Of a DNA stretch of 64,000 nt, positions 54,207-55,596 are shown piece after piece. The translations under genes and the position numbers were made by a program. The DNA is taken from assembly GCA_965223505.1 (NCBI GenBank), contig CBDCWP010000021.1, positions 384,001-448,000 on the forward strand. The letters run 5' to 3'. The stretch is from Planctomycetota bacterium (GTDB taxonomy: Bacteria > Planctomycetota > PLA2 > JAEUHO01). The notes under the pieces are model-generated. The model had not been told where the DNA came from and ran no database searches. It saw only the letters and a program-made list of their open reading frames with translations. Numbering within the stretch: position 1 is the first letter of the stretch; every line of letters begins with the position of its first letter.

Positions 54207-55157
54207 TCAATCCCAGAGCGACGCGAGCGAGTACGGCGATCCTTCCGGCGCCCAGAAGCTGCCGTCGATGTAGCGGTGGCCGGCGTCGAGCGCCAAGATC
54301 TGCGTCATGTCGTCTTCGTCGAGCTCGAGCGACGCCGCGGCGAGGTTCTGCGCCATGCGCTCTTTGTTGACCGACTTGGGGATCACGCTCGTTCCGCGGC
54401 AAACGGCCCACGCGAGCAGCACCTGTGCGTGGGTGACGCCGTGTCGCGCCGCCACCTCGCCGATGACCGGGTGCGTCAGCAGATCGGGGTCGTCTGCCTT
54501 GCGCAGCACCTCGGGCCGGTCCGGGGAGCCGAGCGGCGAGTAGGCCGTGACGTGGACACCGCGCTCGGCGCAGCGGGCGAGCAGGTCCTCTTGCGCCAGG
54601 TAGGGGTGCAGCTCGACCTGGTTGACGGCGACGGGAACCTCGGCTTGGTCGGCGAGCGCTTCGACCTTCTTCGCGCTGAAGTTCGAGACGCCCAGGTGCC
54701 GCACCAGTCCGCCCTTCTTGCACGCCTCCATCGCACGCCAGGTCTCCAGCAACGGAACCTCGTCGAGGCTCACGAGATCGGCCGCCGACTCGGGAAAGAA
54801 CACGCCCGGCTTCAACGCGACCGGCCAGTGCATCAGGTAGAGGTCGAGCTCGTCGAGCTTCAGATCCCCGAGCGTCTTCTCGAGCGCGGGACGCACGTCG
54901 CTCTCGCGGTGCGCGTCGTTCCAGAGCTTGGAGGTGATGAACAAGTCCTCGCGTGTGACGTCGCCGTCCTCGATGGCCGCGCGAATCGCCTCGCCGATCT
55001 CGGCTTCGTTGGCGTACGCCGCGGCGCAGTCGAAGTGCCGGTAGCCGAGGCGAATCGCCGTTCGGATGACGGGTGCGACCTCGCCGGGGTCCGACTTCCA
55101 GGTGCCGAGGCCCAGGGCGGGAATGGTGCCACCGTCCGACAGGTCATGGTGCTTCAC
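54207..55157 (-). CDS. Aldo/keto reductase
   Basis: LGLGTW, GYRHFDCAAAYANE, FITSKLW, DLYLMHWP, GVSNFS, NQVELHPYL and IPKS; GTG start at 55157 after GAGGAG. Confidence 0.95.
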   Translation of the reverse strand: MKHHDLSDGGTIPALGLGTWKSDPGEVAPVIRTAIRLGYRHFDCAAAYANEAEIGEAIRAAIEDGDVTREDLFITSKLWNDAHRESDVRPALEKTLGDLKLDELDLYLMHWPVALKPGVFFPESAADLVSLDEVPLLETWRAMEACKKGGLVRHLGVSNFSAKKVEALADQAEVPVAVNQVELHPYLAQEDLLARCAERGVHVTAYSPLGSPDRPEVLRKADDPDLLTHPVIGEVAARHGVTHAQVLLAWAVCRGTSVIPKSVNKERMAQNLAAASLELDEDDMTQILALDAGHRYIDGSFWAPEGSPYSLASLWD

Positions 55158-55278
55158 GGGAGCTCTCCTCTCGCCCGCGTTGTACTCCGGAACCGAGCGT
55201 CGAATGAAGTCCTTGCCACGACGAAGGAACACGACGCGTTCCACGCGCGTCTCCTGGTTTCGCGAATGGAGGTGCGCC

Positions 55279-55530
55279 ATGTCCAGACGAAACAGCCCCG
55301 ACGATCTCCCGTCCTTTCGATCGGACGAGCAAGCGTAGAAGGGGGTTCCCTTCCGAGACCCGCGTCGGCCGCGGCGTGCGCGTGGTGCACGGCAACAAGG
55401 AGCTTCTCGAGAAGCTCGGCCGCAACGACCTGTGTCCGTGCGGCTCCGGTCGGCGCTTTCAAGCGCTGCTGCCTTCGTAGCGGCCGCTTTCGACGGCTCG
55501 CAGCGGAACGACTACTTCCGCGACGAGTGA
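55279..55530 (+). CDS. SEC-C (SecA-type zinc-knuckle) protein encoded across three +1 frameshifts
   Basis: GGAGGT RBS and ATG 55279. Shifting at TTT-C 55315, 55457 and 55488 gives [82 protein letters not shown] (82 aa). Confidence 0.75.
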
Positions 55531-55596
55531 ACCTGCGCTCCACGGGCTCCGGCCCGTGGAGCATGTCTTCGGAACGGCGATCGCTCGAGTCTGCCG

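Follow-up and report, generated by a model that had tools for sequence, protein, structure and literature searches.

A small SEC-C zinc-knuckle gene of a planctomycete whose expression probably requires three serial programmed +1 frameshifts

Results

Gene organization at the locus

The DNA analyzed here (hereafter designated the window) is a stretch of 64,000 nt from a Planctomycetota bacterium (PLA2; JAEUHO01), corresponding to positions 384,001-448,000 of contig CBDCWP010000021.1 in assembly GCA_965223505.1, a 5.15-Mb draft genome of 44 contigs with 92% completeness (G000); all coordinates given below are positions in the window. Two minus-strand genes, coding for an aldo/keto reductase and a GDSL/SGNH hydrolase, are set about 440 nt apart, and a small gene stands alone on the plus strand between them. 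Judging from its sequence and those of its relatives, it is most probably an intact gene for an 82-residue basic protein with a SEC-C zinc knuckle, the expression of which would need three serial programmed +1 frameshifts. Its elements are as follows.

55268..55273, plus strand: Shine-Dalgarno sequence GGAGGT, 5 nt before the ATG
55279-55281, plus strand: start codon ATG, opening frame 0
55279..55317, plus strand: segment 1, frame 0, residues 1-13; its last codon is the TTT of site 1
55312-55318, plus strand: candidate shift site 1, TCC_TTT_C (TTT 55315-17, skipped C 55318); 0-frame A-site codon CGA
55336..55338, plus strand: TAG closing the unshifted frame 19 codons from the ATG in the open reading frame (ORF) reading
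55319..55459, plus strand: segment 2, +1 frame, residues 14-60; its last codon is the TTT of site 2
55454-55460, plus strand: candidate shift site 2, CGC_TTT_C (TTT 55457-59, skipped C 55460); 0-frame A-site codon CAA
55478..55480, plus strand: TAG reached if the second shift fails, which would leave a product without the last two Cys
55461..55490, plus strand: segment 3, +2 frame, residues 61-70, supplying the end of the Cys4 SEC-C knuckle; its last codon is the TTT of site 3
55485-55491, plus strand: candidate shift site 3, CGC_TTT_C (TTT 55488-90, skipped C 55491); 0-frame A-site codon CGA
55492..55530, plus strand: segment 4, again in the ATG frame, residues 71-82, ending at TGA 55528-30
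55537..55562, plus strand: 11-bp G+C-rich hairpin, GCTCCACGGGC-TCCG-GCCCGTGGAGC, 6 nt past the stop and within the minimum-free-energy fold

The ribosome-binding site, the ATG, the 19-codon frame, and the three in-frame TTT_C words were all found where an earlier note on this DNA had placed them, and its 82-aa reading was reproduced. Thus, when TTTC is read as one Phe step at all three sites, the ATG leads to an 82-aa protein (P0001) ending at TGA 55528-30, and no stop codon occurs on the whole shifted path. The remaining two Phe codons of the gene are TTC (55346-48 and 55516-18), also as described earlier, so that TTT makes up three of the five Phe codons, as compared with 6.7% genome-wide (2423/36014, counted in 2775 long ORF parts sampled from the window genome); simple arithmetic puts the chance of this at about 0.003. 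Moreover, the SEC-C motif becomes whole only after the second shift, which had likewise been claimed: P0001 matched Pfam PF02810 at 37.9 bits (cut-off, 20.4) over model positions 1-19 of 19 with all four Cys, whereas the unshifted 34-aa ORF gave 30 bits over positions 1-14 of 19 and lacks the CC pair.

Protein product and its family

P0001 is small and basic, with the SEC-C motif GRNDxCPCGSGxxFKxCC. In a protein search, 2000 of 2012 candidates scored E ≤ 0.001, the top ones being 63-85% identical in the search table, and the best match to natural proteins (E = 1.8e-30) spanned all three junctions. When P0001 was aligned with 19 proteins hand-picked from the 120 listed (20 sequences), these members showed 62-82% identity to P0001 with coverage of up to 99%. 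Indeed, several relatives are continuous ORFs covering 96-99% of P0001 across all junctions, e.g., P0004 (81 aa), and the continuous relatives read ...[PSA]F-E at the position of site 1. Among the 20 aligned sequences, F13 and F60 are near-invariant, and the tail DGxxRxxYFR[DE], followed by a stop, is common to the family. In P0019, the unshifted frame is kept for five codons in the place of KRCC before the family frame returns, a form that would imply one +1 site plus a compensating change.

A natural member of the family matched 558 representative clusters at E ≤ 1e-10 in a library of 1.84 billion proteins. The conserved N-terminal 45 residues matched no Pfam or NCBIfam model, the NCBIfam matches being only sub-threshold ones to the SEC-C motif, and a PDB sequence search covered the SEC-C motif only (YchJ C-terminal peptide, 9l6b; SecA, 1sx0). 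The AlphaFold2 model of P0004, built on a 119-sequence alignment, was poor, with a mean predicted local distance difference test (pLDDT) score of 64.3 and a predicted template modeling (pTM) score of 0.34. A viral origin was also considered, as the nearest protein-atlas clusters are mostly labeled 'Viruses'; yet just four loci were found in a viral contig collection, and the family was not taken as viral.

Relatives within the same order

A DNA search covering 40 genomes of the window's order located the gene in six of them (G000, G018, G041, G032, G015, and G031; all at E ≤ 7e-31), the remaining matches being to the SEC-C motif only, and the protein search gave paired matches in two frames in G018, G015, and G032. 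The DNA alignment of the order comprised five genomes and was made before G041 was found. CTTTCGA at site 1 and CGCTTTC at site 2 were invariant in all five aligned genomes, which represent two families, while site 3 of the window is private within the order, the relatives having TAC or CTG there. Thus, conservation of TTT_C at the same three positions, which the earlier note had named as support for its reading, was obtained for sites 1 and 2 and not for site 3 among the relatives of the order.

Candidate shift sites are also found in the relatives where the window has an ordinary codon. At the TAC_TTC of the window, they read TAC_TTT_C; F79 of the window (TTC) corresponds to a TTT_C shift site in G018, G041, G015, and G032, and F23 (GGG_TTC) to a GGC_TTT_C shift site in G032 and G031. 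For each of the window's five Phe positions, TTT_C is thereby found in one or more of the sequences (the window included), the others having TTC or a non-Phe codon. Reading by the TTTC rule from the ATG preceded by a ribosome-binding site gave homologous 82-83-aa proteins in G032 (four sites) and G015 (three sites), and a restricted reading, in which a shift may occur only at a TTT or CTT with a pyrimidine (Y) after it, gave a homologous protein in G041 too, with three sites. In G018, the sites are present, and no ATG, GTG, or TTG lies in the leader frame near its GGAGG; a start at CTG is our guess for this genome.

Selection on the shifted frames

Nei-Gojobori comparisons along the shifted path were made for six sequences (the window, G018, G041, G032, G015, and the Gemmatimonadales locus L078); G031, whose contig ends inside the gene, stands outside this set. 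The proportion of nonsynonymous differences (pN) was lower than that of synonymous ones (pS) in all 15 pairs, both from site 1 to site 2 and from site 2 to the end, and in segment 2 the window differed from its five relatives with a pN of 0.08-0.21 and a pS of 0.38-0.57. The leader before site 1 is weakly constrained, pN exceeding pS in 3 of the 15 pairs. Comparable results were obtained in the 51 loci of the wider family (see below) that shift at TTT 70, where the diversity at codon positions 1/2/3 was 0.27/0.19/0.50 in the eight post-shift codons and 0.18/0.16/0.59 in the core. These patterns of codon divergence indicate that the post-shift segments are under purifying selection in their own frames.

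A frameshift rule across the wider family

Species-representative genomes gave 584 candidate stretches, a relative being encoded in 575 of them, and the best 80 loci, from Planctomycetota, Verrucomicrobiota, Acidobacteriota, Gemmatimonadota, Cyanobacteria, Massilia, and others, were combined with the six of the window's order, giving 86 loci to which P0001 was aligned by a frameshift-aware script. In a free alignment, where shifts may fall anywhere, 125 +1 events were placed; the skipped base lies inside TTTY in 77 of them and 1-4 nt upstream of TTTY, a placement of equal score, in 30 more, as compared with a background in which TTTY holds 5.7% of the aligned positions. In a restricted alignment, with +1 shifts solely after in-frame TTT or CTT followed by Y (YUU_Y), 79 of the 86 loci read through residues 17-79, using no shift in 5 loci, one in 21, two in 38, three in 13, and four in 2. 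The shifts fall at the following residues.

Residue 12/13, 32 loci: 15 TTT_CGA, 5 TTT_TGA, 2 TTT_CAC, 10 in TTT_TTT runs
Residue 23, 2 loci: TTT_CCC
Residue 60, 13 loci: 7 TTT_CAA, 3 TTT_CCA, 2 TTT_CCG, 1 TTT_TAA
Residue 65, 3 loci: CTT_CGG (Acidobacteriota)
Residue 70, 53 loci, the commonest shift position: 45 TTT_TGA, 6 TTT_CGA, 2 CTT_TGA
Residue 78/79, 48 loci: 30 TTT_TAG, 7 TTT_CCG, 5 TTT_CAG, 5 TTT_TTT, 1 TTT_CTT

Site 3 of the window thus corresponds to residue 70, with exactly TTT_CGA in six of the 53 loci, and a shift falls at the position of site 1 in 30 of the 86 loci, with an upstream in-frame ATG in 29 and GTG in one. In about 20 of these 30 loci, a list read by eye, an SD-like (Shine-Dalgarno-like) GGAGG or GAGG shortly precedes the ATG of a 10-17-codon leader ending in TTT; the same combination of GGAGG/GAGG and ATG precedes the gene in most site-1-shifting loci and in G015, G041, and G032. 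TCC precedes TTT in 13 of the 22 shifts placed at family position 13. The earlier note had rated the second shift as the best supported and the first and third as weaker, a ranking that no longer stands: shift 1, invariant in 5/5 genomes of the order and used at its position in 30/86 loci, and shift 3, used at its position in 53/86, are now equally supported.

The extra base is T in genomes of moderate GC content, where the old frame automatically gains a stop as a result, and C in GC-rich ones; 34 loci stop directly after residue 81. Gene-caller predictions bear the same marks: in an independent sample of 119 predicted proteins (P0019 set apart), 74 end exactly at F70 and 17 at F79, and just 25 continue through [FYL]DGxx[RK]. 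Cultured isolates with such sites include Massilia, Stieleria, Novipirellula, and Acidobacteriaceae KBS 96. TTT followed by a purine never shifts in the Phe-codon tally, which is non-diagnostic, as the next base is set by the next residue. At residue 70 in L088, L108, and L120 (Pirellulaceae/Novipirellula), the sequence is CGT_CTG_TGA_TGG with a conserved downstream DGVNRDDYF frame; CUG_U offers no obvious re-pairing. In L075 and L103, the free alignment needs a +2 step besides a +1 step.

Genomic context

In a tRNA scan of 84 loci (60 + 24) with a reach of about 1.5 kb, tRNA genes were found near 16 (9/60 and 7/24). Six planctomycete loci (L063, L087, L088, L108, L116, and L119) share the same-strand order tRNA-Arg(tcg), tRNA-Arg(gcg), gene, tRNA-Cys(gca), the gene lying at about 1115-1300 in L063 and at about 1500-1740 in the other five. 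tRNA-Arg(UCG) reads CGA, which is what the A site would hold in frame 0 at TTT_CGA, the most frequent form of site 1. The flanks of 80 loci were scanned through 150 ORFs, namely the longest one on either side provided that it reached 80 aa. In 11 of these loci, the next downstream same-strand ORF codes for an RNA-repair or tRNA-end enzyme or a release factor 1 (RF-1)-domain protein, as listed below. In those 11 loci, the small gene would be the first cistron of RNA-repair operons. Neither the tRNA link nor the RNA-repair link is present in the window or its order.

RtcB downstream: L056, L101
Hen1 downstream: L069, L086, L094
Thg1-like protein downstream: L068, L079, L097, L109
Tpt1 downstream: L091
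RF-1-domain protein downstream: L049

In the window itself, the hairpin at 55537..55562 was not called by a consensus terminator scan; it is possibly a terminator without a T tail, perhaps common to the convergent GDSL gene. A sigma-70 promoter scan gave no match. The longest ORF of the aldo/keto reductase (54207-55280, minus strand) has an ATG overlapping that of the SEC-C gene, and its Pfam match begins at residue 56; its real start is probably the GTG near 55154 (VKHHDLSDGG...).

Alternative explanations and points against the frameshift reading

The simplest alternative is that a sequencing or assembly error inserted a spurious T into three CTTC words. The assembly is the draft of 44 contigs mentioned above, and the depth of the sequencing runs compared with it is just 2-7. 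Nonetheless, Logan contigs of three runs from one sample (contigs, not reads), assembled separately for each run, showed no differences and no indels against the window stretch, the X1 contig spanning it whole and X2 and X4 covering the three sites in pieces. These three runs may be the assembly's own source; runs X5-X20, which lie outside the contig comparison, held just a 0.04 share of the sampled words. As sites 1 and 2 also occur in five other genomes and analogous sites in 74 of the 80 wider-family loci, including complete isolate genomes, we regard such an error, which the earlier note had named as a refuting outcome, as practically negligible. In run X3, which comes from a second sample of the same study, a contig whose loose end lies at window 55327 bears the homolog of another organism, its site 1 being in a T-run form (…CCATTTTTTTCGAGACGAT), which indicates that several versions of the gene coexist in that habitat.

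Genuine extra bases could also mark a decaying pseudogene, in which a continuous SEC-C ancestor gained three 1-bp insertions and the whole protein is no longer expressed. Continuous relatives do exist (5/86 loci without a shift), as the earlier note had foreseen for the failure of its reading; these are distant, and the close relatives all carry extra bases. In keeping with decay, too, are the occurrence in only 6 of the 40 genomes and a truncated, degenerate copy in G001 described below. Two of the three 'insertions' are, however, the same in place and base in five other genomes of two families, the shifted path is stop-free with ribosome-binding site, ATG, stop, and hairpin intact, pN is below pS in each post-shift segment, and the extra bases all follow a Phe TTT and are themselves Y (77 + 30 of 125 events vs. 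the 5.7% background), unlike random indels. We therefore consider decay improbable, and scarcely less so the proposal that only the unshifted pieces matter, namely the 19-aa leader or the 34-aa ORF from GTG 55376, with the full-length frame as a historical leftover. These ORFs are present under translation table 11, the 34-aa ORF by itself scores above the Pfam threshold for SEC-C, and the free use of TTT_C in ordinary genes suggests a low intrinsic shift efficiency; but GTG 55376 has no ribosome-binding site, and the stretch upstream of it has no in-frame start back to TGA 55205 and is nevertheless conserved as protein (S17, K18, R19, P24, S25, E26, and T27 are invariant), as are KRCC and the C-terminal 12 residues in their own frames.

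It is about as improbable as decay that the extra bases are bypassed in some other way, by quadruplet UUUC decoding with an enlarged-loop tRNA, by transcriptional slippage, or by RNA editing. All of these routes give the same protein, and the sequence cannot separate them; moreover, ARAGORN reported three odd 'tRNA-???' genes with 2- or 4-base anticodons. Among its 67 calls, however, there is no GAAA-type anticodon or enlarged-loop reader of UUUC, and tRNA-Phe has the ordinary GAA anticodon. A general quadruplet reader would also misread the 1711 in-frame TTT_C of the sampled ordinary genes, and +1 frame switches at TTT_Y are no more frequent in the long genes than those at control words (3 in 18250 occurrences). 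Runs of three to four T are far shorter than the known tracts of polymerase slippage, which counts against the transcriptional route. The odd calls (C13:102042-102132, catc; C14:20110-20181, tg; and C21:479064-479147, tcgg, all in G000) may be false, and none of them could read UUUC.

Several observations weigh against the programmed triple +1 shift itself. The gene is patchy in the order, as noted, its neighborhoods are unrelated, and no conserved neighborhood was found for it there. A copy in G001 (C14, L010), a member of the same family of genomes, has a leader of the ribosome-binding-site type and TCC_TTT_TGA at site 1, loses similarity past about residue 43, and has no SEC-C motif; from its sequence, it looks like a decayed copy. 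The YUU_Y rule fails in 7 of the 86 loci, namely L030, L098, and L099, where contigs end, L088, L108, and L120, with CUG_UGA_U, and L103; furthermore, L075 was counted among the 79 covered loci though read through a stop. Controls allowing shifts after all codons except TTT/CTT covered 83 of the 86 loci and those after the preceding codons 81, as compared with 79 for YUU_Y; this comparison does not discriminate, because dropping the first T of TTTY yields an identical protein. In the window genome, 1711 of the 2423 in-frame TTT codons (70.6%) are followed by C, other NNT codons showing the same bias, and TTT_CGA (61) and TTT_CAA (36) are not depleted in ordinary genes. Of the A-site codons, CGA makes up 7.9% of those for Arg and CAA 13.9% of those for Gln; both are only moderately rare, and their tRNAs (tcg, acg, and ttg) are present. 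Inspection by eye showed nothing SD-like in the 15 nt before each of the sites.

The free use of TTT_C in ordinary genes implies that the bare word is not a very efficient shifter and that three in series would give little product unless gene-specific help exists. Either the mRNA would carry stimulators other than those found here, or the full-length protein would be made only rarely or conditionally. Taken with the lack of TTT_Y switching across the long genes, the lack of TTT_C depletion also suggests that the shift is gene-specific. On balance, the conserved sites, the selection in each frame, and the continuous relatives that align across the junctions support the core of the earlier note, a programmed triple +1 cassette at C-UUU-C.

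Discussion

Proposed mechanism

We propose that, at each site, peptidyl-tRNA-Phe (anticodon GAA) on the P-site UUU would re-pair one base ahead onto UUC while the 0-frame A-site codon (CGA, CAA, and CGA, respectively) stays undecoded; the genome has two ordinary tRNA-Phe genes with the anticodon GAA in the ARAGORN scan. In the family at large, the tRNA would re-pair from UUU onto UUC or UUU with the A site empty. A -2 shift is disfavored, because it would add a second Phe, and at residue 60 the continuous relatives have only one. Failure at any one site would lead to a truncated or wrong-tailed product of 19 aa, of 66 aa without the last two Cys, or of 110 aa, so that nested products with or without a complete knuckle are possible. 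The earlier note had also suggested that the gene may sense tRNA-Phe modification, the decoding of rare codons, or ribosome stress, which is so far a mere conjecture. Since the full-length output is the product of three slippage efficiencies, it would be a steep function of whatever sets slippage, for which the speed of A-site decoding, the state of tRNA-Phe, or a ribosome-acting factor, possibly the protein itself as is the case of release factor 2 (RF2) for prfB, are candidates.

A tentative and rather doubtful extension of this idea is that the gene serves as a meter of frame maintenance or tRNA damage, its level rising as a power of slippage at two to four UUU_Y sites, and the SEC-C protein helping to restore decoding. 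Slippage would increase if the cell ran short of intact A-site tRNAs or release factors, or if its tRNA-Phe lacked modifications, and the basic zinc-knuckle protein might act with RtcB, Hen1/Pnkp, Thg1-like proteins, or Tpt1, or on the ribosome, closing a feedback loop like that of RF2 and prfB. This proposal concerns the family as a whole; no repair gene adjoins the window gene.

Relation to known systems

To our knowledge, programmed +1 frameshifting in bacterial cellular genes is a textbook matter for essentially one gene, prfB (CUU_UGA_C). The SEC-C sites resemble it in that the P-site tRNA would move one base on to a UUY codon during slow decoding in the A site, and other family members come closer still, with UUU_UGA (45 loci) or CUU_UGA (2) at residue 70, mostly followed by C. 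They differ from it in that the A-site codons of the window are sense codons, no GGAGG-like element of the prfB type lies 3 nt upstream of the sites, three serial sites (up to four in relatives) replace one, and the product is not a release factor. By analogy, a prfB-like autoregulatory logic is conceivable for the SEC-C family. The prfB of the window genome (G000:C39:287756-288781, L124) covers model positions 12-353 in one open 367-aa frame with no internal stop and seems to be without the classical CUU_UGA frameshift.

In Euplotes, genes with several +1 sites at AAA_UAA/UAG are known, a genome-wide feature tied to stop-codon reassignment; the likeness lies in more than one obligatory +1 shift per gene, whereas the SEC-C case is gene-specific and bacterial. 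At the influenza A PA-X shift site, UCC_UUU_CGU, the proposed event is slippage of tRNA-Phe on UUU_C while the A site holds an Arg codon that is seldom used (Firth et al. 2012, PMC3498833). The first site of the window, UCC_UUU_CGA, shares its hexamer and the proposed mechanism; PA-X is viral, is made on eukaryotic ribosomes at a single site, and is a minor accessory product, while in the SEC-C gene a repeated shift would be indispensable to the one product that is conserved. In bacteria, according to a review (PMC5009743), UUU_Ynn is shift-prone and the YopN-TyeA fusion arises at such a word. These cases have the same tetranucleotide and direction without a stop codon, and they are places prone to error or, in the fusion, two genes joined at one site, rather than a conserved multi-site design in one small ORF.

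The SEC-C motif (GRNDxCPCGSGxxFKxCC, PF02810) is shared with the C-terminus of SecA, YchJ, and YecA, none of which is known to us to need frameshifting. The family does not appear in the main text of the GeneTack survey (Antonov et al. 2013, PMC3711429), and no publication on frameshifting in the SEC-C family was found in a literature search of sources outside subscription journals; the design is apparently undescribed. The metal-binding domain (MBD) of SecA binds zinc or iron, SecB, and ribosomes, according to a preprint (bioRxiv 10.1101/613315).

Implications

Collectively, the results point to a small protein family of many phyla whose conserved product takes between one and four +1 shifts, placed at fixed codons for Phe or, in some cases, Leu, the window version with its three sense-codon sites being among the most demanding. 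If this is true, gene callers would systematically truncate or miss the family, 91 of the 119 predicted proteins ending at a shift-site Phe. The gain and loss of shift sites at Phe codons while the protein is conserved would, moreover, point to selection for frameshift-dependence itself. Finally, the link of the gene with tRNA arrays and RNA-repair operons in the wider family would give a testable idea of the purpose of frameshift-gated expression.

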